This document shows, piece after piece, positions 1-44,904 of a DNA stretch of 46,234 nt (its first letter is position 1; each line of letters begins with the position of its first letter). The stretch is from a virus (Duplodnaviria; Heunggongvirae; Uroviricota; Caudoviricetes), in the IMG/VR virus record IMGVR_UViG_2718218309_000006; one strand, written 5' to 3'. The notes below the pieces were generated by a model. The model was not told where the DNA came from. It saw nothing but the letters and a program-made list of their open reading frames with translations, and made no database searches. The position numbers and the translations under genes are program-made.

Positions 1-963
1 GTGCAAAAGAATGGCGATACCTTGTCCGGTGGGCTTACTTTTGAAAACGACTCAATCCTTGCCTGGATTAGAAATACTGACTGGGCAAAGATTGGTTTTA
101 AAAATAATGCCGACAGCGACACTGATTCATACATGTGGTTTGAAACAGGCGACAACGGCAATGAATATTTCAAATGGAGAAGCCGCCAGAGCACCACAAC
201 AAAAGACCTGATGACTCTTAAATGGGATGCTTTGTCTGTCCTTGTTAAAGCCCTTTTCAGCAGTGAAGTAAAAATATCGACAGTCAATGCACTGAGGATA
301 TTTAATTCATCTTTTGGTGCTATTTTTCGTCGTTCTGAAGAATGCCTGCATATCATCCCTACACGAGAGAATGAGGGAGAAAATGGTGATATAGGGCCAC
401 TACGCCCCTTTACGCTTAATCTCAGAACTGGTCGGATAAGCATGGGGCATGGTCTTGATGTTACAGGGGATATATTTGCAAACCGTTTTGCAATTAACAG
501 TAGTACCGGCATGTGGATTCATATGCGTGACCAGAATGTTATTTTGGGACGCAATGCGGTATCCACCGATGGTGCGCAGGCATTACTTCGTCAGGACCAC
601 GCTGATCGCAAATTTATGATTGGTGGACTGGGGAATAAGCAATTTGGCATCTACATGATTAATAACTCAAGGACAGCCAATGGCACCGATGGTCAGGCGT
701 ACATGGACAACAATGGCAACTGGCTTTGCGGTGCGCAAGTTATTCCCGGCAATTATGGTAATTTTGACTCACGTTATGTGAGAGATGTCCGACTTGGTAC
801 ACGTGTTGTTCAGACTATGCAAAAAGGCGTGATGTATGAGAAATCAGGTCATGCAATTACGGGGCTTGGCATTATCGGTGCAGTTGATGGCGATGATCCG
901 GCAGTATTCAGACCAATACAAAAATACATCAATGGCACATGGTATAACGTCGTACAGGTGTAA
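1..963 (+). CDS. Side tail fibre C-terminal variable domain, alternative copy (stf'), 5'-truncated by window edge
   Basis: Ends ...INGTWYNVVQV like the minus-strand stf C-terminus (...INGTWYNAGSI); starts QKNGDTLSGG, similar to QKNQNGADIPG that follows the gix-like site in stf; followed by a tfa gene. Confidence 0.6.
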   Translation: MQKNGDTLSGGLTFENDSILAWIRNTDWAKIGFKNNADSDTDSYMWFETGDNGNEYFKWRSRQSTTTKDLMTLKWDALSVLVKALFSSEVKISTVNALRIFNSSFGAIFRRSEECLHIIPTRENEGENGDIGPLRPFTLNLRTGRISMGHGLDVTGDIFANRFAINSSTGMWIHMRDQNVILGRNAVSTDGAQALLRQDHADRKFMIGGLGNKQFGIYMINNSRTANGTDGQAYMDNNGNWLCGAQVIPGNYGNFDSRYVRDVRLGTRVVQTMQKGVMYEKSGHAITGLGIIGAVDGDDPAVFRPIQKYINGTWYNVVQV

Positions 964-966
964 TTT

Positions 967-1494
967 ATGCAGCATTTAAAAAATATTAAGTCTGGAAATC
1001 CAAAAACAAAAGAACAATATCAGCTAACAAAGAATTTTGATGTTATCTGGTTATGGTCCGAAGACGGAAAAAACTGGTATGAGGAAGTGAAAAACTTTCA
1101 GCCAGACACAATAAAGATTGTTTACGATGCAAATAATATTATTGTCGCCATCACCAAAGATGCCTCCACGCTTAACCCTGAAGGTTATAGCGTCGTTGAG
1201 GTTCCAGATATTACAGCCAACCGCTGCGCTGATGATTCCGGTAAGTGGATGTTTAGGGACGGAGCTGTGGTTAAACGGATTTATACGGCAGACGAGCAAC
1301 AACAACAGGCCGAATCACAAAAGGCCGCATTGCTTTCCGAAGCTGAATCAGTCATCCAACCGCTGGAACGCGCTGTCAGGCTGAATATGGCAACAGACGA
1401 GGAACGCACACGACTGGAAGCATGGGAACGCTACAGTGTTCTGGTCAGCCGTGTGGATACGGCAAATCCTGAATGGCCACAAAAACCAGAGTAA
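967..1494 (+). CDS. tfa: Tail fibre assembly protein, alternative copy (tfa')
   Basis: 175 aa; about 60 percent identical by eye to the minus-strand Tfa ([22 protein letters not shown]...). Confidence 0.8.
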
Positions 1495-1499
1495 AAATT

Positions 1500-1519
1500 A
1501 AGGCCCGATAGCGGGCCTT
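1500..1519. terminator. Hairpin between convergent tfa genes (AAGGCCCG-ATAG-CGGGCCTT)
   Basis: Perfect 8-bp stem, 4-nt loop, A/T-rich flanks; sits between two convergent ORFs. Confidence 0.5.
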
Positions 1520-1522
1520 CTC

Positions 1523-2056
1523 TCATTCTGGTTGTTCGGGAAACGTTACTGGCAGGCCGGAAGTGTCTGTAGATTCGACTTTCTGCGCATAGAGCATCCA
1601 CTCGGTTAATTTTTGTTTATTCTCGTCGGAAATGATGCCCAGCCGTAGCTGTGAGTCCCATAGCTGGGTTTTATCCCTGACAAGTTGCAACAGGCTTTGC
1701 TTTTCATTTTCCGCTTGTTGCCTCTGCTCTTCCTCGGTATAAGTTCGCTTTATCACTACGCCATCTTTGAACATCCATTTCCCCGAAATATCAGCCCGGC
1801 GATTTGCTGTAATATCAGGTAATTCAACGACGCTTGCACCCTCTGGATTAATTGCTGAAACATCCTTTTCAATACAAATAATAACGCCGTTATGGTCATA
1901 GACCATTTTCAAAGTGTCTGGCTGGAAATTCTTTTGTTCCTCATACCAGTTTTTTCCATCATCTGAATAAAGCCATTTGATGTTAAATTGCTTTGTTAGC
2001 TGGTATTGCTCTTTTGTTTTAGGGTTGCCAGCAGTAATGTTTTTTAAGTGCATCAT
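1523..2056 (-). CDS. tfa: Tail fibre assembly protein Tfa
   Basis: 177 aa, gp38/Tfa-like; immediately downstream of stf (stop TAA, 2 nt, ATG). Confidence 0.85.
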   Translation of the reverse strand: MMHLKNITAGNPKTKEQYQLTKQFNIKWLYSDDGKNWYEEQKNFQPDTLKMVYDHNGVIICIEKDVSAINPEGASVVELPDITANRRADISGKWMFKDGVVIKRTYTEEEQRQQAENEKQSLLQLVRDKTQLWDSQLRLGIISDENKQKLTEWMLYAQKVESTDTSGLPVTFPEQPE

Positions 2057-2058
2057 CG

Positions 2059-4896
2059 TTAAATACTCCCCGCGTTATACCACGTCCCATTAATGCAATA
2101 CTGAATTGGCCTTGCCTGAGTTGTATCAATTAATTCATCACGGTTTCCGTTAACTGAACCCGTAACGACATAACCTGACCTGTCAGACCAGCCGGGGCCT
2201 TTCCATGTCTGAACAGATGACAGACCGCCAAGGCGAATACCTGTAATAAACCTTGAGTTACATTCTGCCTGCGTATATGCACCAACATCCCCCGCAGAGG
2301 GTTTGCGTGTTGTGGTGTAAAACTCTGACCAGTTAGCTTCAAAGCCATAACCATCACGCGCTGAACGATAAAAAATACCGCCGTTCCTGTAATTCACGCG
2401 GAACTGTACAGCAGGGCAACTCCCCGCATTCATATTGAAGTGGAGGATTAATGTCGATGCACCACTGATATCTGCATCATAAACACCGCTATTCCAGTTC
2501 CAGCCAACAGCTTTATCATTTGCGACCCTGCGTCCTGTTTGCCCTAAAGCAAATGCAGGCTGCTGGTTTTTCGTGTTGTAGTCTCGTCGCCAGCCAGGAG
2601 CGTAAGCATCACCATGATTAATATAAGTGAATTGAGCGTTAGTAATTCCGCCACCGCTGGACGTGCTCGGCGTAGTAACGCGTATGGTCATTGCGCCGCG
2701 AGTGCCAATAACTTCCACCACAGCACCTGCAAGACAAATATTTCCGCAACCTGTATCTGTAATAACCTTATTATTTGCATAAGCCCATGAGCCTTTGCAC
2801 ATCCAGTAAGGATGGTTAAATGCCCCCTGACTCTCCAGCCACGAAATAAATTGCGCAGTTGTCCAGACCTGACTATCGCCACCAATATTCAGCCATGCGC
2901 TATATGCGCGGCAGGCACCAATGTTTTTGGTGAAGGTATCTTTTCCCGGAATATCTGCGCCGTTCTGGTTTTTCTGTAATGCGCCAGAAGCCTGATTTAC
3001 CGTTTCCTGTAAACCGAGGTATTCGATAACGGCAGCAACGGTCGATTTCGCAAGAATATCCCGCCCGACTTTTGTCAGGGTTGCCAGGCTGGCGACATCA
3101 TTCCCCGTAAAATACGGAAACCTGTCTGCCGCAGTAGCAAGCCCGGCCAGCGCCGTCAGGGTGGCATCTTTCGGTTGCTTACCCGCAAGCGCGTTAGTCA
3201 TGGTGGTCGCAAAATTCGGGTCGTTGCCCAGCGCCGCCGCTAACTCGTTCAGCGTATTCAGTGCGTCAGGCGACGAGTCTACAAGGGCGGCAATCGCGGC
3301 CATCACATAAGCCGTACTTGCGATCTGAGTATTATTAGTACCTTTTGGCGCAGTTGGCGTTGTTGGCGTTCCGGTCAGTGCAGGACTATTTAAGGGCGCT
3401 TTCTTGTTCGTTTCATCCATTACCGCCTTAACCGCTTTTGGTGTCGCAGCCAGCGTTTCAGACGGGCTGTTAGTGGCGCTACTGAGCTGAACCACACCTT
3501 TTTTCGTCGTACTCGCATCTTCCAGAGATACGGCATCAGCAATATCCTCTGCCCGTTTTGCCGCTGTTTCGGCACGCGTTGCCGCGGATTCAGCAGCAAC
3601 TTTGCTCTGAGATGCCGCCGTCGCACTGCCAGCAGCCTCTGTTGCCTTCGTGGATGCCGTCGTGGCGCTGCCCTTCGCTGCTGACGCTTGTCTGGTCGCC
3701 TCATCTTTTGAAGCAGACGCCGATGAGGCCGATGACGACGCCGAACTGGCTGACGATGCGGCAGCCGTTTTTGAGGATTCTGCGCTGGTTTCCGACGCTT
3801 TCGCGTTCGTTTCGGATGTCTTCGCTGCGGAAGCTGACCTCGCTGCTGCGCTGGCCTGCTCAGTGGCTTCGCCAGCCTTCGTTGTGGCTGTTGAAGCGGA
3901 TGATGCGGCGCTTTCTGCCGATTTTCCGGCGGCGGTGGCACTGGCTGAGGCCTGCCCGGCACTTGTTGACGCGGCGCTGGCAGACGACGCAGCCGCTGTT
4001 TTTGAGCCTGCCGCAGCCGAGGCGCTCTGTCCCGCTGCCGTTTCAGAAGACCTGGCGTTTGTCTCAGACGTCTTTGCCGCCTTCGCGGAATTGCCTGCCG
4101 CCGTTGCCGAGGAAGCGGCACTACTGGCGCTTGATGATGCGTTCGTTTCTGATGATTTCGCTGCCTCTTTTGAGGCCGCCGCATCCCGGGCTGAGGTGGC
4201 TGCTTCTGACGCCTTCGTGGTCGCGGCGGATGCAGAAGTGGCTGCTGATTGTTGTGACGCTGCCGCATTCGTTTCTGACGTTTTCGCCGCACCGGCACTG
4301 GTAGTTGCCGCGCTTTTTGAGGACTCTGCAGCAGCAGCACTTTTTGCTGCTTCACGGGCCTTTGTCGATGCCGTTCCTGCGCTGGAAGACGCTGACTGAG
4401 CCGACGACGCGGCCTGTCCGGCTGACGTGCTGGCTGCGCGTGCTGAGCCTGCAGCATCAGTCGCATGGGTTGCCGCCTCACGGGCTGATGTGCTGGCATC
4501 GCTGGCTGACTTCTTCGCGGCTGCCGTGTTCTGTGCCACCGCGGACGCGTTACGCGCCACCTCTTCCACCATCAGCTCAAAACGGCGCAGTGCCTCCGGA
4601 CGGGCATCATCCTCCGTCATGGCACCGAGAAAATCATTCAGCGTACCGGGCCGGGAATCTTCATACACGGTGATGGTCCCGGCATGTGACGGCGGGAATC
4701 CCTCCACCAACAGAATAACGCTGTACTGCCCGTACTCAACGTCCATGCTGTAACGCCCGGCTTCATCCGGATTTTCTGAGGCCAGCGTGTTCACCACCAC
4801 CGTGGTGCTGTTACGTTTTGCTTTCAGCTGGATTGTGCAGTTCTGTACCGGTTTTCCTGTGCCGTCTTTCAGTACACCTGAAATCTTTACTGCCAT
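2059..4896 (-). CDS. stf: Side tail fibre protein Stf (constant N-terminal part lambda Stf-like, long Ala/Ser/Thr-rich repeat, Mu/P1/e14-like variable C-terminal domain)
   Basis: N-terminus MAVKISGVLKDGTGKPVQNCTIQLKAKRNSTTVVV matches lambda Stf as recalled; ORF track starts at GTG 4902, ATG at 4896 more likely. Confidence 0.9.
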   Translation of the reverse strand: MAVKISGVLKDGTGKPVQNCTIQLKAKRNSTTVVVNTLASENPDEAGRYSMDVEYGQYSVILLVEGFPPSHAGTITVYEDSRPGTLNDFLGAMTEDDARPEALRRFELMVEEVARNASAVAQNTAAAKKSASDASTSAREAATHATDAAGSARAASTSAGQAASSAQSASSSAGTASTKAREAAKSAAAAESSKSAATTSAGAAKTSETNAAASQQSAATSASAATTKASEAATSARDAAASKEAAKSSETNASSSASSAASSATAAGNSAKAAKTSETNARSSETAAGQSASAAAGSKTAAASSASAASTSAGQASASATAAGKSAESAASSASTATTKAGEATEQASAAARSASAAKTSETNAKASETSAESSKTAAASSASSASSSASSASASKDEATRQASAAKGSATTASTKATEAAGSATAASQSKVAAESAATRAETAAKRAEDIADAVSLEDASTTKKGVVQLSSATNSPSETLAATPKAVKAVMDETNKKAPLNSPALTGTPTTPTAPKGTNNTQIASTAYVMAAIAALVDSSPDALNTLNELAAALGNDPNFATTMTNALAGKQPKDATLTALAGLATAADRFPYFTGNDVASLATLTKVGRDILAKSTVAAVIEYLGLQETVNQASGALQKNQNGADIPGKDTFTKNIGACRAYSAWLNIGGDSQVWTTAQFISWLESQGAFNHPYWMCKGSWAYANNKVITDTGCGNICLAGAVVEVIGTRGAMTIRVTTPSTSSGGGITNAQFTYINHGDAYAPGWRRDYNTKNQQPAFALGQTGRRVANDKAVGWNWNSGVYDADISGASTLILHFNMNAGSCPAVQFRVNYRNGGIFYRSARDGYGFEANWSEFYTTTRKPSAGDVGAYTQAECNSRFITGIRLGGLSSVQTWKGPGWSDRSGYVVTGSVNGNRDELIDTTQARPIQYCINGTWYNAGSI
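3005..3030. other. Candidate Gin/Hin/Pin-family 26-bp crossover site (gix/pix-like) inside stf
   Basis: TTCCTGTAAACCGAGGTATTCGATAA; recalled Mu gix is TTCCTGTAAACCGAGGTTTTGGATAA; encodes junction peptide EYLGLQE on the minus strand. Confidence 0.6.
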
Positions 4897-5630: not shown

Positions 5631-8600
5631 TCAACGAATACTGATGCCGGAAGCGGCTTTTTTGGTCACAATCACCGTACAGTCGGTGATATTGCCTGCC
5701 CCCTGATTGCCTTTCTGGAAAATCTTAAACTCCAGAGTGACGCTTCCCCTGCCACTCGGCATATCAATAACTGCACTGTAACTACCGGGAATGGCCCCTT
5801 TAGTTTCTCTGGATGCGATTAATACGCCGTTTTTGCGAACTTCAAAACCATAACCCGTGTATCGCGTGCCTCCTGGGTTATTTCCGCTCCCCGGATCGTC
5901 ATACGCTATACCGTTAAAAATAATGGGCGGAATAATAATCTGGCGGTCAAAGTTATGATCATCGCTGATGGTGACTGTAACCGTACCGTTTGGTGTTTCC
6001 GTGTTACCCCACGTACCGACTTTTTTCGGGAAGGCTTTTGATACAGCTTTAACGAAATCTCCTCTGACCTGGGTCGCCTCCAGCATGCCCTTAATCGTAC
6101 AGTTCTGGTTAATCGTGACATTGTTGAGCGTTCCTGAGTTCGCATTCACACTGCCACTGATATCCGCATTTTTCGCCGTCAGTCTCCCGTCTGATGTCAG
6201 GGAAAATGCCGGAGGATTACCGCCGCTGGTAATGGTGGGGGCCGTCAGGCGTTTCAGGAACACTTCATTCATGAATATCTGATCGCCCTGACCAACAAAC
6301 ATCGGCTTTGTGTTGCCATTCGCAGGATTAATCATCGCAATCCTGTCTGCTGCCAGCAGCACCTGACTCTGCATGCCGTCAGGGGTGTTCTCAATACCGG
6401 CACCGATACCCGCAATATAAAGGCGTCCGTCCTGCATCTGCTGCAGCTTCACTGCCCACATGCTGTTCAGGTTATTATTTGTATCAACCTGAACCTTCTG
6501 TATCTGCTGGATCGCTGCACTCTGGTCTTCCAGTTTCTTATTGACGGTCTGTGTTATTTCATTGCTGACATCCGTTATGGACGTCCTGATTTCAGTCAGG
6601 TCAGGCGCAAGCTGACCGTTATCAATCTGCGTCCACAGCTCCTGAGCCAGATGGGTTTTCCCTATCTCGCCTTTGAAAAAATCCAGATAGCCTGATGCAT
6701 CATCACTCGGCTGACCGACAGCCTCCACGAATGCCGATTTGCCAACGGTGTTCACACTGCGAACGTAAAAATAATAATCATGGCCCGGTTTGATATTGAT
6801 ACTGGCGGCTATCCAGTACAGTGCCGTACCAAGATAACGCGCGCTGGTTTCAACCTGCCTGATATCCGCAATCCGCTTTTCCGAGAACCAGAACTCAAAC
6901 TGTACCGTCGGATCATAAACCGCAAGATGCGGCGTGGCGGTTATCTGAAAATACCCCGGTGTCAGCTCAATCTGCGACGGCGCTGCCGGTGCGGCAATCC
7001 GGAACGATACCGATGCCGGATCGCCCTGCTGCCCCCACGCATTTACTGCCCGGACTGTCAGCCTGTAGTTCCCCAGCGCCAGTTGTGTGAAGCGGTATGT
7101 GGTTTCCGCCGTCCGGGCTGTGCTGACCAGCCGCTCACTGCCGTCATCCGCTGCCACGGTCAGGCGAAGCATAAAGCTCACCCCCTTCACCACCTTCGGC
7201 GTGTCCCAGCGGGCCAGTACCTGATATTCCCCGCTGTCTGCGGTGACTTCGGCAGTCAGGTGCTGCACCGCTGGCGGCGTGACACCATTCACCGTGCCGC
7301 TCTGGTCGCCGTCAAAGTGCGCCCCGTTATCCACGATGGCCTCTTTTTCCGGTACATGCTGCACGGCGGTGATGGCATACATACCGTCGTCGTTCTCACG
7401 GATACTCACGCAGCGGAACAGGCGCTGGCGCAGCGTCGGCAGCTTCAGCCCCCACACGCTGTATCCGGCAACGCCGTCAGGAACACGGCTCACTTTTACC
7501 TTCACGCCGTCGGTGACGGACTGGACCTCCACGCTGACCGGATTACCCTGACCGTCAACCAGGCTTATCAGCGTGGTACCGGAGGATGGCAGCGTGATTT
7601 CACGGTCGAGCGTCAGCGTCCGGGTCTGGCTGTTCACCGCCAGCACGCGCCCGCCGGTGCTGATACCCGCATAGTCATCATCGCAGATTTCAATGACATC
7701 CCCCGGTACATGGCGAAGCCCTTCCGCACCCACGCTGAAGTCCACGGTCTGCGTTTCCAGCAGTTCCGTTTTAATCAGCCACAGCCCGGCGCGGTGCGCC
7801 TGCCCCCGGCTGGTACAGCCAAAGGCATCCATCTTCGTGACGTTACGACCGTAACGGGCAATGGCCTGCGTATCTTCAACAAGCTCTGTCGCCGTCTCCC
7901 AGCCGTTATCCGGGTCAATCCAGTTCACCTCAACGGCATTATGGCGGTCTTTCAGGGCGCTGAAACTGTAGCGGAACGGCGCGCCATCATCCGGCATCAC
8001 CACATTACTGCGGTTATAGGCCCACACCTTATCCGACGGTCGGTCCTGCACGAACGTCAGCGTCTGCCCGTTCCATACCGGCATACAGCGCATCGCCGAG
8101 CAGAAATCACTGAGCACATCCCACGCCTTGCGCTGTGTGGTCAGGTACGCATTACAGGTGATGCGCGGCTCCGTGCCGCCAAAGCCGTCCGGCACTGACT
8201 GGTCGCAGTACTGGCCGATGACATACAGCGCCCATTTGTCCACATCCGCCGCACCAAGACGTTTTCCCATGCCGTAGCGCGGGTGGGTCAGCATATCCCA
8301 CAGACACCAGGCCATGTTGTTGCTGTATGCTGGTTTTAACGTTCCGTCCCAGATACCACTGTATTGCCGCGTCTGCGGGTTATAGTTCGACGGCACCTGC
8401 AGAATGCGCCCGCGAAGATGATAATTACGGCTCACCTGCTGGCTGCCGAACTGCTCCGAGTCCACCTGCACGCCGACCAGTGCCGTGTTCGGGTAGCCCT
8501 GTTTCACATCGATGATTTCGGTGTATGACGACCAGAGCGTTTTGTTCTGCAGCTGGTCTGTGGTGCTGTCCGGCGTCATCCTGCGCATCCGGATATTAAA

Positions 8601-9128
8601 CGGGCGCGGCGGCAGGTTATCCACCACCACCGAGGCCAGATACTGCGAGGTGGTTTTGCCCTTAATGGTGATGTCTTTTTCCGTCACCCAGCCACCATTA
8701 CGCTGTATCTGAACCAGCAGGCGGACTTCCGATGGATTCCTGTCCCCCTTTGAGGTGGTTTCCACCAGTGCCTGTACACCGAAGGTAAAGCGCAGACGGT
8801 CGATGTTTGCCGACGTGATGGTCCGGGTGATCGGCGTGTCATATTTCACTTCCGTACCCAGCACCGTCTCGGAGCCGGAGGATTCAAATCCCTCCGGCGG
8901 TGACTGCTCCTGCTCACCGGTCCGGAACACCACCGTGACGCCGGATATATTGGTATTCCCCTCACTGTCCAGCACCGGCGTACTGTTCAGCAGCACGCTT
9001 TTTAATCCGTCCACCGGACCTTCAACCGGCCCTTCGCTGATGGCATCGATCACACTCAGCAGCTGCGTGGACTTCAGGTTGTCCTTCGCTTCGCGCGGGG
9101 TATGCCCCTTACTGCTGCCTTTACCCAT
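5631..9128 (-). CDS. J: Tail tip host specificity protein J (central tail fibre)
   Basis: 1165 aa; N-terminus [45 protein letters not shown] matches lambda J as recalled; lambda J is 1132 aa. Confidence 0.95.
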
Positions 9129-9188: not shown

Positions 9189-9860
9189 TCAGCGACCAAT
9201 CACCACAACCTGACCACCATCCCCTTCGTCTGCCGTGCTGATCTCCTGAGAAACCACGCGTGACCCCACGCGCATTTCACCGTACAGAACAGGCAGAACA
9301 TTGCCCTGGGCAACCATGTTATCCAGTGAGGAGAAATAGGTGTTCTGTTTGCCGTTATCCGTTGTCTGTGTACGGGGAGTTCTGGCTTTCGGTGCCAGCA
9401 TCTGCGCCACACCACCGAGCACCATACTGGCACCGAGAGAAAACAGGATGCCGGTCATACCACCGGCCCCAATGGCTGCCCCCCATGCTGCAAGGGTGGC
9501 TCCGGCGGTAAAGAATGATCCGGCAATGGCGGCTGCTCCCAGGACAATCTGGAATACGCCACCTGACTTGGCCCCGGCGACTCTGGGAACAATATGAATC
9601 ACAGCGCCATCAGGCAGAGTCTCATGTAACTGCGCCGTTAATCCGGACGTGCTGACATCCTGCCCGGCAATCCGTACCTGATACCAGCCGTCGCTCAGTT
9701 TCTGACGAAACGCCGGGAGCTGTGTGGCCAGTGCGCGGATGGCTTCAGCCCCCGTTTTCACACGAAGGTCGATGCGGCGGCCAAATCGTTGCAAATCCCC
9801 GTAAAGGCAGATGCGTGCCATTCCCGGTGACGCCAGAGGGAGTGTGTGCGTCGCTGCCAT
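9189..9860 (-). CDS. I: Tail tip assembly protein I
   Basis: 223 aa, same length as lambda I; overlaps the K 3' end by 103 nt as in lambda. Confidence 0.9.
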   Translation of the reverse strand: MAATHTLPLASPGMARICLYGDLQRFGRRIDLRVKTGAEAIRALATQLPAFRQKLSDGWYQVRIAGQDVSTSGLTAQLHETLPDGAVIHIVPRVAGAKSGGVFQIVLGAAAIAGSFFTAGATLAAWGAAIGAGGMTGILFSLGASMVLGGVAQMLAPKARTPRTQTTDNGKQNTYFSSLDNMVAQGNVLPVLYGEMRVGSRVVSQEISTADEGDGGQVVVIGR

Positions 9861-10502
9861 TTGTCGGTGTACCTCTCTCGTTTACTCAGTTGTTCAGGAA
9901 TATGGTGCAGCAGCTCACCGTCACCACAGTAAATGGCGGCATGATTCGGCACCGATGAACCAAAACAGCACAGCAGCACATCGCCCGGCTGCGCCGCTGA
10001 CAACGCCACCTGATACAGCCCTGTGGCCTCCAGATTATCCAGATAGAGATTCTGACCGTGACGCCACCAGTCATCCTCGCGATGAAAATCCGGCATCTCA
10101 ATCCCCGCCAGATGATAAGCATCCCGGAACAGTGTGTAACAGTCCGTCACACCGTGCTCAAAGCGCCGCCCGGTGAGATGCGGCACACAGCGGAACTTAT
10201 GAATCGTCCCCCGGCAGACCAGCCACCACGGCAAATCACTCCTGCACCTGCAGCCGCCGGTCGGCCTCACTCAGCCAGGGCAGACCACCGGGGTGGCTGT
10301 GGACCAGCGCCACAATCTCACCCTGCATTTCTGCCTGCAGCCAGTCTTCCGGCGACATACGGAAATACGCCTCCGGCTCACCGGAGATATTCACGCAGGG
10401 GAAATATCTTTCCCCCTCCGGCGTGCTTACCACGAAGCCGCACGACTCCGCTGGCGCACATCGCCGGGCGTGCGCCAGAATCGCTGATTCTGTCTGTGTC
10501 AT
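9758..10502 (-). pseudogene. K: Tail tip assembly protein K (JAMM/MPN + NlpC/P60) split by a +1 frameshift near 10239-10242
   Basis: N-terminal ORF 10236-10502 (JAMM motif HSHPGGLPWLSEAD) ends ...RRLQVQE-stop; C-terminal part continues in another frame from SDLPWWLVCRG; pieces sum to the 199 aa of lambda K with one extra nucleotide. Confidence 0.7.
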
Positions 10503-10507
10503 GGGAT

Positions 10508-11206
10508 TTACTGCGAAAGTTTGTTAATGGAAAGGAAGCCGCCAAAGTTGCCGACGTTATTGCGGAACTTACAACCGCTCAGGCATTTGCTGCATTTATC
10601 CTTCGTGATATCGGACGTTGGCTGGTCATATTCATCCGCGACAGCCGGACCGCTATAACCGCACTCGTCACCGCGATAGGTCCAGGTGCAGGTGTTGGCC
10701 AGCATGATACGTCCCGGAAAAACAGCGCCATCCGTTTCCGTCGGCGTGGACAGTACAAAGGAGGCACTCACCGCGCTCAGTTCGCTGCACTGCTCAATGC
10801 GCCAGCGGCTGATCACCTCCTGCTCCGGATCGGCGTAACTGTTTCCGTTGACGAAGTTCACCGCATCCAGAAAACGGGCGTAAACCTTACGCCGGACCAC
10901 CGTTCCGCCGACCAGACTCTGCATATCTTCCGCCATCCCGGTGACCATACCGTACAGGTTAGAAACCGTCAGCGTGGGGCGCGTACTGGTGCCTTTGCCA
11001 TTCAGTTCAAAACCGCTCCCCTGAATGGGATACGGCTGATACTGTCGCCCCTGCCAGGTGACCGGCTCACCTTTTTCGTTCTGCTCATTACAGAAAAAAT
11101 AACGTTCTCCACCGACCTCTGTCAGGTCGATTTCCCAGAGCACCACGCTGGCCGACTGCTCCGCACGGGTGCATTCATTCAGTGTTTCCTGCCGGATATC
11201 CTGCAT
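10508..11206 (-). CDS. L: Tail tip assembly protein L
   Basis: 232 aa, lambda L length and position. Confidence 0.9.
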   Translation of the reverse strand: MQDIRQETLNECTRAEQSASVVLWEIDLTEVGGERYFFCNEQNEKGEPVTWQGRQYQPYPIQGSGFELNGKGTSTRPTLTVSNLYGMVTGMAEDMQSLVGGTVVRRKVYARFLDAVNFVNGNSYADPEQEVISRWRIEQCSELSAVSASFVLSTPTETDGAVFPGRIMLANTCTWTYRGDECGYSGPAVADEYDQPTSDITKDKCSKCLSGCKFRNNVGNFGGFLSINKLSQ

Positions 11207-11535
11207 CAGTTCACCACCTGTTCAAACTCTGCGCTGAACTCAACACGCAACATACTGACCCGCGACGACCATTTTGCGCAGGTCACCTTTATCTGCCGCC
11301 ACTCATAAGGCGGCGTCCACAGAAAGGATTTCCAGCCCCCGTGCTCTTCCAGAAACGACTCCAGTACCGTGGCCTCCTCACGGGGGACAGAAAGCGTCAC
11401 GCTGTACGTTTTCAGGTTGGCATTCAGCCCGGCAGGCGCTCGCTGAGAATAGCCATCACCAAAGCGCACCTTTCTTACAGAAGGGACCGAAGCCACATCC
11501 ATACCGGGTTTCACTTTCCAGCGGAAGGTCTTCAT
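11206..11535 (-). CDS. M: Tail assembly protein M
   Basis: 109 aa, MKTFRWKVKPGMDVASVPSVRKVRFGDGYSQRAP... as lambda M. Confidence 0.9.
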   Translation of the reverse strand: MKTFRWKVKPGMDVASVPSVRKVRFGDGYSQRAPAGLNANLKTYSVTLSVPREEATVLESFLEEHGGWKSFLWTPPYEWRQIKVTCAKWSSRVSMLRVEFSAEFEQVVN

Positions 11536-14093
11536 CGTCCACCTCCGGAGAACAGGCCACCATCACGCATCTGTGTCTGAATTTCATCACGGGCACCCTT
11601 GCGGGCCATGTCATACACCGCCTTCAGAGCAGCCGGACCTATCTGCCCGTTCGTGCCGTCGTTGTTAATCACCACATGGTTATTCTGCTCAAACGTCCCG
11701 GACGCCTGCGACCGGCTGTCTGCCATGCTGCCCGGTGTACCGACATAACCGCCGGTGGCATAGCCGCGCATCAGCCGGTAAAGATTCCCCACGCCAATCC
11801 GGCTGGTTGCCTCCTTCGTGAAGACAAATTCACCACGGTGAACAATCCCCGCTGGCTCATATTTGCCGCCGGTTCCCGTAAATCCTCCGGTTGCAAAATG
11901 GAATTTCGCCGCAGCGGCCTGAATGGCTGTACCGCCTGACGCGGATGCGCCGCCACCAACAGCCCCGCCAATGGCGCTGCCGATACTCCCGACAATCCCC
12001 ACCATTGCCTGCTTAAGCAGAATTTCTGTCATCATGGACAGCACGGAACGGGTGAAGCTGCGCCAGTTCTGCTCACTGCCGGTCAGCATCGCCGCCATAT
12101 TCTGTGCAATACCATCAAAGGTCTGCGTGGCTGCACTTTTTACCTGCGACATACTGTCCGTGGCGCTCTCTTCCCACTCACTCCAGCCGGACTTCAGGCC
12201 TGCCATCCAGCTCCCGCGAAGCTGGTCTTCAGCCGCCCAGGTCTTTTTCTGCTCTGACATGACGTTATTCAGCGCCAGCGGATTATCGCCATACTGTTCC
12301 TTCAGGCGCTGTTCCGTGGCTTCCCGTTCTGCCTGCCGGTCAGTCAGCCCCCGGCTTTTCGCATCAATGGCGGCCCGTTTTGCCCGTTGCTGCTGTGCGA
12401 ATTTATCCGCCTGCTGCGCCAGCGCGTTCAGGCGCTCCTGATACGTAACCTTGTCGCCAAGTGCAGCCAGCTGGCGTTTGTACTCCAGCGTCTCATCTTT
12501 ATGCGCCAGCAGGGATTTCTCCTGTGCAGACAGCTGGCGACGTTGCGCCGCCTCCTCCAGTACCGCGAACTGACTCTCCGCCTTCCACAAATCCCGGCGC
12601 TGCTGGCTGATTTTCTCATTTGCTCCGGCATGCTTCTCCAGCGTCCGGAGTTCTGCCTGAAGCGTCAGCAGGGCAGCATGAGCACTGTCTTCCTGACGAT
12701 CGCCCGCAGACACCTTCACGCCGGACTGTTTCGGCTTTTTCAGCGTCGCTTCATAATCCTTTTTCGCCGCCGCCATCAGCGTGTTGTAATCCGCCTGCAG
12801 GATTTTCCCGTCTTTCAGTGCCTTGTTCAGTTCTTCCTGACGGGCGGTATATTTCTCCAGCGGCGTCTGCAGCCGTTCGTAAGCCTTCTGCGCCTCTTCG
12901 GTATATTTCAGCCGTGACGCTTCGGTATCGCTCTGCTGCTGCGCATTTTTGTCCTGTTGACTCTGCTGCTCAGCCTTCTTTCGGGCGACTTCAAGCGCAA
13001 GACGGGCCTTTTCACGATCATCCCAGTAACGCGCCCGCGCTTCATCGTTAACAAAATAATCATCCTTGCGCAGATTCCAGATATCGTCCGCTTTCTTAAA
13101 CGCGGCCTCTGCCTTAATCAGCATCTCCTGCGCGGTATCAGGACGACCAATATCCAGCACCGCATCCCACATGGATTTGAATGCCCGTGCTGTCCTGTCT
13201 GCCCAGGTTTCCAGCGTGCCCATGTTCTCTTTCAAGCGTCGGGTCTGGTCATCAAACCCTTTCGTTGCGGCCTCGTTCGCCGCCTGCAATGCCCCGGCTT
13301 CATCGCCGGAACGCTGCAACTGAGCAACATACGCAATCTGCTCCGCCGTCACGTTATGGAACTGGCGTGCCATCGCCGTCAGCCCCGACGTCGGGTCTGT
13401 GGTCAGCTTCCCGAAGGCTTCAGCGACCTTGTCCACCTCCACGCCGGATGCAGAGGAGAAACGCGCCACACTCTGGCTGATGGACGCAATCTGAGCCTCA
13501 CCGCTTACCCCCGCCTTAACCAGTGCGCTGAGTGACTCGCTGGTCTGGTTAAACGTCAGCCCTGCCGCCTGCCCGGCTCTGGACAGGACCAGCATACGAT
13601 CTGCCGTCAGTCCCGCCTGATTGCCGGAAAGGACCAGCGTTTTGTTGAAATCGGACAGGGTTGAGTTGCCCTGATACCAGGCATACGCCAGCGCTCCGGT
13701 CGCCACCGCCAGCGAGGTAGCCCCCACCATCGGCAGGGTGATCGCACCGGCAAGCCCCCGGAACATGGGGATCATCCCGCCGAAGGAGTCCTTCACCTGA
13801 CCCCCCTGTTGCAGCAGGATCAGCCACGGACTTTGCCCGCCTGCAAGCTGCGTGGCCACGTCAGTGAACTGCGCAGGCAGCATACGCATGGCGGCTTTAT
13901 ACTGCCCGACGGAAATTCCCGCTTTCTGTGCAGCCAGCGCCTGCCGGTTCATCGACTGTTCAACGACTGCCGCTGTTTTTTTCGCATCACTTTCCGTACC
14001 GGAAAAATGACGCCTGACTCTGGCCATCTGCTCGTCAAATCTGGCCGCATCCAGACTCAAATCAACGACCAGATCGCCTACCGGTTCAGCCAT
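11532..14093 (-). CDS. H: Tail tape measure protein H
   Basis: 853 aa, lambda H length; coiled-coil and Gly-rich C-terminal regions. Confidence 0.92.
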   Translation of the reverse strand: MAEPVGDLVVDLSLDAARFDEQMARVRRHFSGTESDAKKTAAVVEQSMNRQALAAQKAGISVGQYKAAMRMLPAQFTDVATQLAGGQSPWLILLQQGGQVKDSFGGMIPMFRGLAGAITLPMVGATSLAVATGALAYAWYQGNSTLSDFNKTLVLSGNQAGLTADRMLVLSRAGQAAGLTFNQTSESLSALVKAGVSGEAQIASISQSVARFSSASGVEVDKVAEAFGKLTTDPTSGLTAMARQFHNVTAEQIAYVAQLQRSGDEAGALQAANEAATKGFDDQTRRLKENMGTLETWADRTARAFKSMWDAVLDIGRPDTAQEMLIKAEAAFKKADDIWNLRKDDYFVNDEARARYWDDREKARLALEVARKKAEQQSQQDKNAQQQSDTEASRLKYTEEAQKAYERLQTPLEKYTARQEELNKALKDGKILQADYNTLMAAAKKDYEATLKKPKQSGVKVSAGDRQEDSAHAALLTLQAELRTLEKHAGANEKISQQRRDLWKAESQFAVLEEAAQRRQLSAQEKSLLAHKDETLEYKRQLAALGDKVTYQERLNALAQQADKFAQQQRAKRAAIDAKSRGLTDRQAEREATEQRLKEQYGDNPLALNNVMSEQKKTWAAEDQLRGSWMAGLKSGWSEWEESATDSMSQVKSAATQTFDGIAQNMAAMLTGSEQNWRSFTRSVLSMMTEILLKQAMVGIVGSIGSAIGGAVGGGASASGGTAIQAAAAKFHFATGGFTGTGGKYEPAGIVHRGEFVFTKEATSRIGVGNLYRLMRGYATGGYVGTPGSMADSRSQASGTFEQNNHVVINNDGTNGQIGPAALKAVYDMARKGARDEIQTQMRDGGLFSGGGR

Positions 14094-14520
14094 ACCGGAC
14101 TCCTCCTGCGATCCCTTCTGATACTGTCATCAGCATTACGTCATCCTCCGTCATGTCCGCCACATCCGGGGAAGCGGGGATAACTTCATTCCCGTCCGGG
14201 CCAAAGCGGACGCCTCCGGCAAGCCCTGCCGCTTTCTGCATCAGCACATCATCTTCAGGCTCTTCGTCAGCCTCGCGCCGGTTCAGCAGACTGAAATCCA
14301 GCGGATGCATATCCGGATCGCTGAAAAACAGGCTGAGTACGGTGTACGTCAGCCCGGAAAAGTGCATATCCAGCAGAACATCATGAAAATAATGGGTACT
14401 GTAAAAGCGGTGCCAGTCGGCATACTCCGTGGATGACATCCCGGCAAGCATGGCGCGCCAGTCGGGTCGCCCCATCTCACGCGCCAGTTTCAGGGCAAAA
14501 CTCAGCTCACCGTCGAACAC
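14086..14520 (-). CDS. T: Tail assembly chaperone T-frame, expressed as a G-T fusion by -1 frameshift
   Basis: 144-aa frame overlapping the G 3' end; slippery heptamer at its 5' end. Confidence 0.85.
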   Translation of the reverse strand: MFDGELSFALKLAREMGRPDWRAMLAGMSSTEYADWHRFYSTHYFHDVLLDMHFSGLTYTVLSLFFSDPDMHPLDFSLLNRREADEEPEDDVLMQKAAGLAGGVRFGPDGNEVIPASPDVADMTEDDVMLMTVSEGIAGGVRYG

Positions 14521-14924
14521 TTTCCCGCAGAAACAGGCTCTGCTGGCCCGGCGTCATCTGCCTGTTCAGGTGCATCATTCACAACAAACTCAGACATACC
14601 GGACAGACGCATTACCACATTTTCAGCCTGAGCAATTGCCTCTGTGGGCCAGGTGGTAAGCACTTCCTGCTCAATTTGTTTAACGGCTTCATTCATGGAC
14701 GGCATCTTTGTCTTCTGCGGATGGCTATGCCACAGGGACATCGCCACCAGAAAAGCACCGGTTCTGACGAGATCTTCCACGCTCACCTGTCGATTGAGAC
14801 TGGATCCCGCCTGTTCTGCCTGCCGTTTCATCAGGGCGAGATGCTCAATACGCTGCAGGGCTGACAGTTCAGAAAGCGTGACGGTCACACCGTTATGTTC
14901 AAATGATTCGGTTTTCAGGAACAT
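14502..14924 (-). CDS. G: Tail assembly chaperone G
   Basis: 140 aa, MFLKTESFEHNGVTVTLSELSALQRIEHLALMKRQAEQAG... as lambda G. Confidence 0.9.
   Translation of the reverse strand: MFLKTESFEHNGVTVTLSELSALQRIEHLALMKRQAEQAGSSLNRQVSVEDLVRTGAFLVAMSLWHSHPQKTKMPSMNEAVKQIEQEVLTTWPTEAIAQAENVVMRLSGMSEFVVNDAPEQADDAGPAEPVSAGKCSTVS
14520..14526 (-). promoter_or_regulatory. Programmed -1 ribosomal frameshift slippery site G GGA AAG (G to G-T)
   Basis: Minus-strand GGGAAAG near the end of G, in G frame as GCG GGA AAG. Confidence 0.8.
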
Positions 14925-28341: not shown

Positions 28342-29424
28342 ATGAAAAAATTAACAGTGGCAATTTCTGCTGTAGCTGCATCAGTACTGATGGCGATGTC
28401 TGCTCAGGCAGCTGAAATTTATAATAAAGACAGTAACAAGCTGGATCTGTACGGGAAAGTTAATGCTAAGCACTACTTCTCCTCTAATGATGCAGATGAT
28501 GGTGATACTACTTATGCCCGTCTTGGCTTCAAAGGTGAAACCCAAATCAACGATCAACTGACTGGTTTCGGTCAGTGGGAATATGAATTCAAAGGCAACC
28601 GCGCTGAATCTCAAGGTTCCTCCAAAGACAAAACCCGTCTTGCATTTGCAGGCCTGAAATTCGGTGACTACGGCTCAATCGATTACGGCCGTAACTACGG
28701 TGTAGCATACGACATCGGTGCGTGGACTGACGTTCTGCCAGAATTCGGTGGCGATACCTGGACCCAAACAGATGTATTCATGACTGGTCGCACCACAGGT
28801 GTTGCAACTTATCGTAACAACGACTTCTTTGGTCTGGTTGATGGCCTGAACTTTGCAGCTCAGTATCAGGGCAAAAATGACCGAAATGAAGTAACTGAAG
28901 CTAATGGCGATGGTTTCGGTTTCTCAACTACTTATGAGTATGAAGGATTCGGCGTGGGTGCAACCTATGCTAAATCTGATCGCACTAATAATCAGGTTAT
29001 CTACGGTAACAACGGTCTGAATGCTTCTGGTCAAAATGCTGAAGTATGGGCAGCTGGTCTGAAATATGATGCGAACAACATCTATCTGGCCACCACCTAT
29101 TCTGAAACCCAGAACATGACTGTTTTTGGTAATAACCATATTGCCAACAAAGCACAAAACTTCGAAGCTGTTGCACAATATCAGTTCGACTTCGGCCTGC
29201 GTCCATCCGTTGCTTACCTGCATTCTAAAGGAAAAGACTTGGGTGTTTGGGGTGATCAGGACCTGGTTGAATATGTTGATGTAGGTGCAACCTATTACTT
29301 CAACAAAAATATGTCCACTTTTGTTGACTACAAAATCAACCTGATTGATAAGAGCGATTTCACGAAAGCATCTGGCGTTGCTACCGATGATATCGTTGCT
29401 GTAGGTATGGTTTACCAGTTCTAA
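28342..29424 (+). CDS. Outer membrane porin, OmpC/OmpF/PhoE family (Lc/NmpC-like phage-borne porin)
   Basis: 360 aa, signal peptide [23 protein letters not shown] then [17 protein letters not shown] and C-terminal ...VAVGMVYQF; opposite strand to the flanking Q and lysis genes. Confidence 0.92.
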
Positions 29425-29562
29425 TTTGATTACTAAAAGATATGTTGTGGGAGGCTTTGCCTCCCCAACATATAAGTGGCTCCCTCAAGCCACTTCCTTT
29501 AGAAGCACAACCTTGCTTCTAACTATACAAACCTTCTGTTATATATTACCCTTTATTTTTGG

Positions 29563-29590
29563 GGGCGTTTCAACGCCCCATTTTTAATAA
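29563..29590 (+). terminator. Rho-independent terminator downstream of the porin gene
   Basis: GGGGCGTT-TCA-ACGCCCC followed by ATTTTTAAT. Confidence 0.55.
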
Positions 29591-29612
29591 CTTTTAGTAA
29601 ATAATTGGCGTA

Positions 29613-29996
29613 TTAATTAGAGTTATTAACAACGATATCCATCTCTAACCGGATATCTAATGCCATTAACATCCCTTCAATTATGCCCTCAGCCTTCTGT
29701 AACCTTTTCCCGATATAACCATCAGAGCAGCAATGCTTACCTGCCAGTGACATGAATGTCATACCGACTACATAATAATCTACTAATAAATCGTGCAAAT
29801 CGCTGTTGTTCTTTTTCAGACGGGCCATGCACCCGCAAATGATCATCGCGTCATCGTCACAACATTGCGGGCGAGATTTTACTTTTGAAGTAATTAATCC
29901 CTTAAAACCGGCGGCAATGGACGACCAGGTCACATCTTCATGATTATTAGCCGCCCACGCTCCCCAACGCTCAAGAACCATCTGAATATCACGCAT
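29613..29996 (-). CDS. Q: Late antiterminator Q (phage 82 / DLP12 QuuD type)
   Basis: 127 aa from [50 protein letters not shown]; matches DLP12 QuuD as recalled. Confidence 0.88.
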
Positions 29997-30081
29997 CAAC
30001 TTACTCCACAAAAATCAGACCAGAACGCCAATTACAAGCAAAAATCAACGAAACAGTATTAGTTGATTGTTATCTCTGACT

Positions 30082-30204
30082 TCATACTCCTGCTCCTGTC
30101 AGGGTTTTGGCGTAATTCTTCAGTATTCGGTAATCGGTCAAAACAGAACCGGGGAAACGATATAAGCGCAGACGCCCCCAGCGGTGGCGAAGACGTTCTG
30201 CCAT
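30082..30204 (-). CDS. Small ORF in the ylcG position between rusA and Q
   Basis: 40 aa, MAERLRHRWGRLRLYRFPGSVLTDYRILKNYAKTLTGAGV; not in ORF track (under 60 aa). Confidence 0.3.
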   Translation of the reverse strand: MAERLRHRWGRLRLYRFPGSVLTDYRILKNYAKTLTGAGV

Positions 30205-30218
30205 ATAAAACTCAAACA

Positions 30219-30581
30219 TCATTCATTCCCCATTTCGGTGATGGTCAGTTCCAGCCTCCCACCTTTGGTAACAGGCATCTTCACAACGCGGTAATCAACG
30301 ACCTGAGCATCATCCAGCCAGAAACCTGCTTTAGTGAGTGCGTCAAAAGCGGCTTTTTGCAGATTATCCAGGTCACGGCGACGGCGATCCGGCATGTGGC
30401 ACTCAATGCGGATTTTCACAGGCATAGCCAGGCCGATATCCAGCATTGCGTTTTTAATGATTCGGGCGACGTTATCGCGGTATGCCTGCCCCTCTGCGCT
30501 GACGTGCGTGCGCCCGCGATTATGGCGGTAATAGCGATTATTGCTCGGAGGCCAGGGTAATGTGATGCTGTAGGTATTCAC
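30219..30581 (-). CDS. rusA: Holliday junction resolvase RusA
   Basis: 120 aa, [54 protein letters not shown]... Confidence 0.92.
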
Positions 30582-30868
30582 GCCTTAATAACCCCCTCTT
30601 TCAGCCAGATAACCTGTGTTCTCGCCATACCTTCCAGCGCGCATTCTTTTGCATATGCAGCATCGACAAAATGTGTGCGGCGGTCGATTTCGTCGTGGCA
30701 GGCAGAACATGCAATGGTGGCAATCAGGTCTGGCGGTTTGGTACCGGTGCCGCACAATCCAGTCAGCCGGATATGTGCCAGTACAGACGTTTCAGGGTTG
30801 CCATTACATACGCCAGGGATTCTTACCTGGCATTCCCGACTACGCGCTGCTTTTCTCAAATCAGCCAT
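30578..30868 (-). CDS. YbcO-like protein (DUF1364, Cys-rich putative nuclease)
   Basis: 96 aa from [42 protein letters not shown]; start overlaps the ninE end. Confidence 0.8.
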
Positions 30869-31031
30869 GATTCCTCCTTGCTGCCAGTCGCAACCATTTT
30901 TTATCAACCAGGCTGGCGGTATATCCGAGCAGTGTTGGTATTTCGGAAGGCTTCAGCTCCGGTTTACGCTTACGACGATCTGGTACTCTGTAGATGTGTC
31001 CGTTCATGACACGAATAAGCGGTGTAGCCAT
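30861..31031 (-). CDS. ninE: NinE
   Basis: 56 aa, [56 protein letters not shown]; not in ORF track (under 60 aa); TAATG overlap with the ybcN stop. Confidence 0.7.
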   Translation of the reverse strand: MATPLIRVMNGHIYRVPDRRKRKPELKPSEIPTLLGYTASLVDKKWLRLAARRNHG

Positions 31032-31486
31032 TACGCCTCCTGCTTGTCGCGGAGCAGCTGGAACTCGCAGCTCTGCGGAATAGTCAGGTGGCAGCCAATA
31101 TTCACCGCCCAGGCTTCAACCTTACACAGGAAGACATACATCTCTCCGGTATCAAGATCGGAGGTATGGCGTAACGACTGGATAGTGGTGATATCACCGG
31201 TTACGACATCAACCAGGTCTTTGGTTTCATAACCGAGATATGTGTGTTTGAGAGCATCTTTTACCCAAGCTGGAGTAGCGAACGTTTTACCCCTGCTGAT
31301 GAGGTATTCACTGATTTCGCTGTACCACATGTGGCTGAGTGCATTCTGGGAAAGACTGCGTTTCTCACGCCACGGTTTAAGCACCATGCGAAAGCATTTG
31401 CCCTCCTCCAGATAAGGCTGGATCTGCCGACCGATAGCGGTGAAGTTACCGCGATGTAATTTGATGCCATCTTGTGGGAGATTCAC
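31031..31486 (-). CDS. NinB-family recombination protein (YbcN-like)
   Basis: 151 aa, [58 protein letters not shown]; resembles DLP12 YbcN as recalled. Confidence 0.8.
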
Positions 31487-31680
31487 GCTTCACCTCCGCA
31501 GAGGTCAAACGCTGGATACAATATATCGCAGGTGCATTTCTGCATCTGTGAATGGAGAAGATAGGTTGGTTTGTATGTGCGCATAAACGTCCCCGTTTAG
31601 CGCAGAAGTCACCGGAGTTGTTCAGGCTCCAATGGCATGATTATGGCTGGTTGATTATTGGAAATCAAATGTGCTGAAAA

Positions 31681-32190
31681 TTAGTCTGCCAAGTCTTCCT
31701 CAGTCGCAACTGGGTAATTCCAAATATCAAAAAAAGCTATAGCCTCCTGCCATTTGCTCCATAAGTTATCAAGTACTTGTGTAGGTTCCGTACTTTTAAA
31801 AACAGAATCAGCCGCATCACCGTTATGAACTTCCTCGTACAGTTCCATTATTAGCAGATTAACAAAGTACTGTTTCAACATTAATGCCTGATTACCTTCT
31901 TTCTGCTGGCTATCCTGCTTGATGATCTCCATCGCCCGTACTAGGCACCTGATGATATCCGCTGCATCATTAACGCTCCATTCAGATCCGCGCTTATCTT
32001 TAGCTGATGAATTGGCTCTCTCAGCGCAAGCCTTTAAAGACTCATAAAGGTAAACTCTATTTTGTAGCTGCAGCGCTTTTTTTGACGTGTACCAACTTGC
32101 AAGCGCCGACCCCGCTGCGGCTAATGTGCCAAACGCAGAAATACCTGCTGCTATTGCACTTAAGTCGGCACTGTCAAAGTTCCACATCAT
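31681..32190 (-). CDS. Hypothetical protein, unknown function, with N-terminal hydrophobic segment
   Basis: 169 aa; DLSAIAAGISAFGTLAAAGSALASWY likely TM/signal anchor, acidic C-terminus; AT-rich flanks of about 190 and 150 bp; no family recognised. Confidence 0.5.
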   Translation of the reverse strand: MMWNFDSADLSAIAAGISAFGTLAAAGSALASWYTSKKALQLQNRVYLYESLKACAERANSSAKDKRGSEWSVNDAADIIRCLVRAMEIIKQDSQQKEGNQALMLKQYFVNLLIMELYEEVHNGDAADSVFKSTEPTQVLDNLWSKWQEAIAFFDIWNYPVATEEDLAD

Positions 32191-32508
32191 CGTTACACCT
32201 TATATAAATACCCCTCAGTAATATCCAATAAGGTATGTGCACAATCAATATAATTTTATCCGTATCGGCACATAGCGATTTGAAGGCTACTGGTAATGGT
32301 ATATTTTAGATTATATCGTCCAGTTTACAGCACCCGTATTTTATGAAATGGACTCGCATATTACCCAAAAAATGCCAGCACTTCCGTCATCGTAGAATGC
32401 TGGCAGTATTTCTAACTAGTGACTTTATTGGAACAGATTCTGACGGAAATATGGTAACACTCGACTCCACTTATCATCCAGCCACGGCTGGAATTTTACA
32501 TGTGCCGT

Positions 32509-32748
32509 TTATCTGGCGAGGATTGCTCGCGCTCTGTTGAGTATCTGGGGATATTCATGCTCGATAGAAGTAAAGCGGCCGGCTTCGCGGTGCTCCGCAA
32601 CCTGAAGTAGTGGAGTAACGTTCTGGCAGGCAGTTAACATCACATCACCTGCTCGCCATAACCAAGCACGTGCACAAAGTTTGTTATCAGTGAATTGTTT
32701 TGTGATTGGGTATTGTTGAACTGCTAGAACGAGAACGCCAGCATCCAT
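32509..32748 (-). CDS. Hypothetical small ORF, possibly a gene remnant
   Basis: 79 aa, no recognisable family; lies between the orphan ORF and the recombinase gene. Confidence 0.25.
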   Translation of the reverse strand: MDAGVLVLAVQQYPITKQFTDNKLCARAWLWRAGDVMLTACQNVTPLLQVAEHREAGRFTSIEHEYPQILNRARAILAR

Positions 32749-32859
32749 TGGCAGTCCCTATAGTAAAACCATAGCTCAGGACGCTTCGTTCAGGATAGAT
32801 AATTTTATTGTACTTACCTAACTTTCTTACTATAGCACGGTTGAAAAAGTGATTATTAC

Positions 32860-43549: not shown

Positions 43550-43768
43550 ATGTACTTGACACTTCAGGAGTGGAACGCACGCCAGCGACGCCCAAGAAGC
43601 CTTGAAACAGTTCGTCGATGGGTACGCGAGTGCAGGATATTCCCTCCTCCGGTTAAGGATGGAAGAGAGTATCTGTTCCACGAATCAGCGGTAAAGGTTG
43701 ACTTAAATCGACCAGTAACAGGTAGCCTTTTGAAGAGGATCAGAAATGGGAAGAAGGCGAAGTCATGA
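43550..43768 (+). CDS. xis: Excisionase Xis
   Basis: 72 aa, MYLTLQEWNARQRRPRSLETVRRWVRECRIFPPPVKDGREYLFHESAVKVDLNRP... Confidence 0.95.
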   Translation: MYLTLQEWNARQRRPRSLETVRRWVRECRIFPPPVKDGREYLFHESAVKVDLNRPVTGSLLKRIRNGKKAKS

Positions 43769-44816: not shown

Positions 44817-44904
44817 TGATTTTATTTTGACTGATAGTGACCTGTTCGTTGCAACAAATTGATAAGCAATGCTTTTTTATAATGCCAACTTAGTATAAAA
44901 AAGC
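44817..44904. other. attL: P' arm plus 15-bp core (GCTTTTTTATACTAA, present as ttagtataaaaaagc at 44890-44904)
   Basis: Reverse complement reads GCTTTTTTATACTAAGTTGGCATTATAAAAAAGCATTGCTTATCAATTTGTTGCAACGAACAGGTCACTATCAGTCAAAATAAAATCA as in lambda attP P' arm; host attB-like sequence on the far side. Confidence 0.88.

Follow-up and report, generated by a model that had tools for sequence, protein, structure and literature searches.

The tail gene K of bacteriophage lambda encodes a protein (gpK or TAPK) that combines a JAB/MPN domain and an NlpC/P60 domain. Lambda needs this protein to assemble its tails, and no K is detected in virions (PMC12617516, PMC3224144, PMC10721106). Its JAB and NlpC/P60 peptidases have been proposed to process the ubiquitin-like protein I (Iyer et al., PMC1779556). 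Several frameshifts are described in lambda and its relatives. In the same tail cluster as K, the lambda G-T -1 frameshift joins two overlapping frames at a defined site, a slippery heptamer that is conserved across phages. In laboratory lambda, a single-base frameshift splits the tail gene stf into two ORFs (orf401/orf314; PMC10721106, PMC12617516); stf is dispensable for plaques and the mutation is fixed in the laboratory lineage. Moreover, frameshifts in the morphogenetic genes of lambdoid prophages are common: defective prophages that are otherwise complete (e.g. the Sp prophages of Sakai) carry point frameshifts in such genes, which can be complemented by co-resident prophages (PMC2669165).

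The window that we analysed is a stretch of DNA of 46,234 nt that contains a lambda-type E. coli prophage, integrated at the lambda attachment site beside ybhC. The 15-bp att core GCTTTTTTATACTAA is located at 44890-44904, between int (43746-44816) and ybhC (44951 onward). The late operon lies on the minus strand in the order H-M-L-K-I-J-lom-stf-tfa, and K has the same position between L and I/J as lambda gpK. Over the K region, the window shares 97.4-97.6% nucleotide identity with lambda, with the same L-K-I-J order, the same Pfam domains and the same JAMM motif. Whereas lambda K is continuous at the junction considered here, the window copy has an extra G after codon 87 and encodes no single 247-aa polypeptide. 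The features of this part of the tail cluster are the following:

11532-14093, minus strand: gene H (from the ORF list).
11206-11535, minus strand: gene M (from the ORF list).
10508-11206, minus strand: gene L, 232 aa, intact, with its stop 5 nt upstream of the K ATG.
10236-10502, minus strand: K ORF1, 88 aa, from the ATG at 10502, ending ...SEADRRLQVQE-TGA (from the ORF list and translation).
10241-10242, minus strand: site of the extra base, GG against a single G in all relatives (alignment column 319; the pairwise indel lists against 101EVA and the homologous records L012, L014 and L017 all put the gap at 10241).
10239-10243, minus strand: AGGAG, a Shine-Dalgarno-like sequence that exists only through the inserted G (assessed by anti-SD duplex energy).
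10236-10238, minus strand: premature TGA created by the frameshift, ending ORF1 after Glu88 (Ser88 in intact K).
10232-10234, minus strand: in-frame TTG (Leu90 of K), a candidate restart codon, located 4 nt downstream of AGGAG and 1 nt downstream of the new TGA.
9758-10240, minus strand, +1 frame: rest of K, from Ser88 to Val247 plus the stop at 9760-9758, beginning SDLPWWLVCRG (from translation; not joined to ORF1).
9189-9860, minus strand: gene I, 223 aa in the classical model, intact, overlapping the end of K by 103 nt.
5631-9128, minus strand: gene J, 1165 aa, intact; the exact protein is found in 211 blocks of public assemblies.

An earlier note on this DNA had described the K region as two ORFs in different frames, separated by a one-nucleotide insertion (CAGGAG where lambda has CAGAG). 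The two frames were indeed recovered, with ORF1 (10502-10236) ending SEADRRLQVQE-TGA and SDLPWWLVCRG following in the +1 frame, and the proposed insertion proved right to the base. We aligned positions 9700-10560 of the window (minus strand) with lambda NC_001416, the re-sequenced lambda PV340536, PhiR11_1 and 2G7b. Exactly one position has a window base that is absent from all four other sequences (GTGCAGGAGTGA in the window vs. GTGCAGAGTGA). On the minus strand, the window reads CAGGAG at 10239-10244 where lambda and all relatives examined read CAGAG, the extra G being one of the two at 10242/10241 (C10241/C10242 on the plus strand). One extra G was also seen against 101EVA and against the homologous records L012 to L018. 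The same two-frame arrangement was looked for in lambda K itself and was not found, all lambda records being continuous at the junction.

The insertion turns Ser88 into Glu followed by a stop; the frame shifts after codon 87, leaving the remaining codons of K in +1. When one G is removed, K becomes a 744-nt ORF of 247 aa, to which the two pieces contribute 87 and 160 aa. K in the window follows the pattern of a frameshift pseudogene, in which a premature stop is due to a single indel relative to intact orthologues and the whole frame reopens once this indel is undone. Seven other E. coli assemblies, among them 101EVA, GCA_022180125.1 and GCA_016925095.1, have a K gene that matches the repaired one at every nucleotide (100% identity). 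In addition, over the 9.1 kb between 2996 and 12129, the window and GCA_022180125.1 (L012) differ by the K base alone, with 0 substitutions. Because of these two identities, the putative insertion event is to be regarded as very recent, with no secondary decay.

We then located the break relative to the domains of K. In the intact protein, Pfam places Prok-JAB at residues 3-104 and NlpC/P60 at residues 111-224, and K aligns up to residue 105 with the solved stand-alone JAB protein PDB 2kks. ORF1 matches Prok-JAB (7.6e-14), its residues 3-84 corresponding to positions 3-89 of the 114 of the profile, while the downstream frame matches NLPC_P60 over the full profile (3.6e-13; 1-105 of 105). The whole JAMM motif, as read from the translation, is retained in ORF1, with Glu19 (10448-10446) and His68-x-His70-x7-Ser78-xx-Asp81 (10301-10260). 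Through the stop after residue 87, the JAB fold loses about 17 residues at its end; the downstream frame (10240-9758) covers the end of this fold, the linker and the complete NlpC/P60 domain. In the window, the two domains are therefore not carried by one polypeptide of ~247 aa, ORF1 being closed by TGA at 10238-10236 and what remains of K lying in +1. The earlier note had presented the break as a split between a JAMM/MPN part and an NlpC/P60 part. From the profile and structure alignments, it is instead placed inside the JAB/MPN domain and not between the two domains.

The note had also stated that lambda K (199 aa) is continuous across the junction and that the two pieces add up to this length with one extra nucleotide. 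The continuity and the extra nucleotide stand, but the pieces correspond to 247 aa and not to 199. These errors in the length of K and in the domain boundary leave the conclusion of the note unchanged. The figure of 199 aa comes from J02459/NC_001416, where K is annotated from 14276 and not, as a 247-aa protein, from 14133, which leaves a gap of 148 nt after L. These records have no G between 14266 and 14267 (GGAGGC-TATTTCC; 492/493 of the NC_001416 alignment record), and this G is also missing in OR474059 and OR974322. It is present in PV340536, LC730321, PhiR11_1, 2G7b and the window (equivalent position 10368, minus strand). Without this G, codons 1 to 48 of K fall into another frame, so that the ORF is called from the internal Met49 and has 199 aa. 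Intact K has 247 aa in the re-sequenced lambda PV340536 and in 101EVA. Judging from the comparison of these records, the lambda reference is probably in error at the missing G (a 1982 sequencing error, as opposed to a real polymorphism of a viable stock). A literature search found no published correction or discussion of the lambda K gene model. Like K of the window, the 199-aa K of J02459/NC_001416 is shortened by a 1-nt difference inside the JAB-coding part, but this discrepancy is a deletion located 126 nt upstream of the insertion of the window. The textbook 199-aa lambda K would then reflect a one-base discrepancy in the 1982 reference, the protein having instead 247 aa with a complete JAB domain, which matters for work on the biochemical role of K and on the proposed processing of the ubiquitin-like protein I.

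To estimate how rare the insertion is, we screened several collections. With an 861-nt query, 13,991 K-like places were found in 4,374 of the 5,426 complete E. coli genomes, and none of them has the insertion, the best matches being 860/861 with one gap. It was likewise absent from the complete E. coli genomes with a 121-nt query, and from 253 phage records. Exact 41-mer and 21-mer scans of GTDB species representatives, IMG/VR and JGI metagenomes gave no genuine match to the insertion allele; one 21-mer match in a Methanosarcinales MAG has unrelated flanks and is due to chance. Moreover, a look-up among 153 billion gene positions returned neither the 88-aa nor the 170-aa product as an exact match. 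K has 247 aa at all 17 other places inspected, 10 of which were anchored on the portal protein (widespread, with 10,358 blocks on record) and 7 on J; the exact J protein of the window has a 247-aa K as neighbour in 7 of the 7 places shown. Across these collections, the insertion allele is a singleton, apparently private to the window sequence.

The quality of the surrounding sequence was assessed against the closest genomes, since the complete RefSeq genomes of E. coli do not include the window itself. Positions 1-24000 of the window share 99.2% identity with 101EVA, and the K indel is the only one that changes a frame; a compensating pair of indels (14797/14806) lies within a divergent patch. 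Positions 24001-46234 share 99.94% identity with E. coli 55989, with a single indel at 30495, and this right half is also close to NCCP15648 (99.9%, as for 55989). The K insertion is thus the only frame-breaking indel of the window across 46 kb relative to these genomes. The earlier note had judged all the other head and tail genes to look intact, and this was borne out: all these ORFs have the same length as in the annotation of the intact prophage of strain 101EVA, and the heptamer GGGAAAG of the G-T programmed -1 frameshift is in place and intact at 14520-14526. Unlike the defective lambdoid prophages mentioned above, the window has only one of its head and tail genes damaged, and K shows no decay beyond the extra base.

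The explanation that we prefer is a strain-private and very recent duplication of one G in K, which would leave the prophage on its own tail-defective; we give it an even chance of being right as a whole. Translation from the K start would yield an 88-aa fragment with all the JAMM metal-binding residues and without the last strands of the JAB fold, and the NlpC/P60 half would be left without a proper start of its own. Since lambda does not assemble tails in the absence of K, the prophage alone would be expected to produce DNA-filled heads and no functional tails. The missing function could be provided in trans by the K protein of a second lambdoid prophage in the same cell. With translation ending about 480 nt ahead of the regular stop, the expression of I and J may also be lowered by polarity. 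We infer both the tail-less phenotype and the presence of the base in the DNA of the cell. The case resembles stf of laboratory lambda in that a single base splits a tail gene in two ORFs, but K is essential for tail assembly where stf is dispensable for plaques, and the window allele is a singleton where the stf mutation is fixed. If the base is real, an otherwise complete prophage would need a co-resident K to make tails, which bears on predictions of inducibility and transmissibility.

The earlier note had proposed either an inactivating mutation or a sequencing/assembly indel, and these are the two explanations that survive our tests. According to the second, the strain has an unbroken K with CAGAG, and the deposited consensus is wrong in showing one more G. 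This is a serious competitor, to which we give somewhat less than an even chance, a real mutation being slightly favoured over an artefact. None of the collections searched yielded a second copy of the allele, and no other assembly has it, so that there is no sign of its inheritance; one base with 0 substitutions over 9.1 kb relative to several independent assemblies has the look of an isolated base-calling error. A 46-kb contig that crosses a lambdoid prophage uninterrupted points to long reads, since assemblies from short reads usually break up at such prophages (among E. coli genomes with any K-like sequence, the median is 3 such places). Long-read insertion errors typically repeat the adjacent base, as in a change from G to GG. 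However, the usual sites of systematic long-read errors are long homopolymers and the Dam (GATC) and Dcm (CCWGG) motifs, and the context of the insertion includes no long homopolymer, no GATC and no CCWGG. The K indel being the only frame-breaking one in 46 kb also argues against an error-riddled assembly, although one isolated error per 46 kb fits a polished long-read assembly too. Furthermore, real frameshifts are common in prophage genes (PMC2669165). If the base is an error, the deposited record needs correction. In both cases, the feature is of a known kind, an ordinary private frameshift or a base-calling error in a well-known gene of an equally well-known type of phage, with no new mechanism, and its significance beyond annotation is small.

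We also considered two explanations in which the interrupted K would remain functional. Ribosomes ending at the new UGA might re-initiate at the UUG that follows, so that Leu90-Val247 would be made separately and the function of K wholly or partly kept. When start codons were enumerated in the frame of the downstream ORF, TTG 10234-10232 was the only plausible restart codon that keeps NlpC/P60 whole. The anti-SD duplex ahead of it is computed at -6.9 kcal/mol in the window and at -4.1 after repair, the former being comparable to the native L (-7.2) and J (-6.8) starts; the stop and restart codons are adjacent, and both catalytic motifs are still encoded. Versions of K with NlpC/P60 only exist in some prophages, but Iyer et al. 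regard them as probably degenerate (PMC1779556). UUG is moreover a weak start codon, the spacing of 4 nt is short, the break cuts through the JAB fold, and the arrangement occurs in no other genome, with no sign of selection. Such a restart behind the new AGGAG is conceivable but unsupported, and we consider a tolerated split of K improbable. The more specific combination, in which the insertion is real, AGGAG-UGA-U-UUG yields a truncated JAB and a free NlpC/P60 and the prophage stays tail-proficient, appears slightly less probable still. If it were true, the covalent JAB-NlpC/P60 fusion and an intact JAB fold would be dispensable for lambda tail assembly. Dispensability would follow equally if the missing G of J02459/NC_001416, OR474059 and OR974322 were real in a plaque-forming stock, which would in turn count in favour of a tolerated split. 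The other explanation, a programmed (+1) ribosomal frameshift or another recoding event joining the two frames of K, is effectively refuted. The same tail cluster does contain a genuine -1 frameshift (G-T), and AGGAG directly upstream of UGA superficially resembles the prfB +1 site. However, prfB has a spacer of 3 nt between the Shine-Dalgarno-like element and the shift codon, while here the element overlaps the codon. At the junction CAG GAG UGA U, the P-site GAG cannot re-pair at AGU (+1), and there is no X XXY YYZ heptamer. Unlike the G-T site, the K break is thus neither at a slippery heptamer nor conserved, the two-frame K being absent from the 13,991 homologous places and from all phage records, and removing one base gives exact identity with intact genes. 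A second GGGAAAG within K (10408-10414) was discarded as irrelevant, being out of the X XXY YYZ register and present as the same sequence in lambda.

Some observations concern the neighbourhood of K. The K start codon (10502, minus strand) has no Shine-Dalgarno-like sequence (anti-SD duplex of +0.7 kcal/mol) and lies 5 nt past the stop of L, which suggests that the translation of K is coupled to that of L. A 416-aa ORF on the plus strand (10058-11308), antisense to K and L, was rejected as a purely mechanical ORF without support. As the earlier note had said, the 103-nt overlap between K and I (9758-9860) is kept, under the classical model in which gene I has 223 aa. The start of gene I is ambiguous on the minus strand, with either the ATG at 9860 (223 aa and the 103-nt overlap) or the GTG at 9761 (190 aa, PGAP-style); in other gene calls, gene I has 210 aa. 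The ATG is preceded by GAGAGG (anti-SD duplex of -9.3 kcal/mol), and the GTG has no Shine-Dalgarno-like sequence (+0.4 kcal/mol).

Finally, other features of the prophage were recorded. Positions 1-3025 belong to an invertible tail-fibre segment, with a crossover site at about 2998-3025 (minus strand). Within stf, this Gin/Cin/Pin-type site reads TTATCGAATACCTCGGTTTACAGGAAAC; upstream of it, a second tfa (967-1494) and a promoterless alternative C-terminal part of stf (1-963) are found in the opposite orientation. In the records L012 and L013, the DNA is identical with the segment flipped, the N-terminal part of stf running on into the sequence that starts at window position 1. Neither the second crossover site nor the invertase gene falls within the window. 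In the right half, rusA (30219-30581) is intact in the window, and its 55989 counterpart, annotated as frameshifted, has lost 1 nt at the position corresponding to 30495. Together with K, this makes two cases of a private 1-nt frameshift in the prophage lineage. A DLP12-like cargo (28342-34386), flanked by the replication and lysis regions, includes an OmpC-type porin (28342-29424), an EmrE-type SMR transporter and a YbcK-type serine recombinase (32860-34386). The annotation of 55989 also lists, beside this cargo, a pseudogene fragment (P22AR C-terminal domain) that contains an internal stop.
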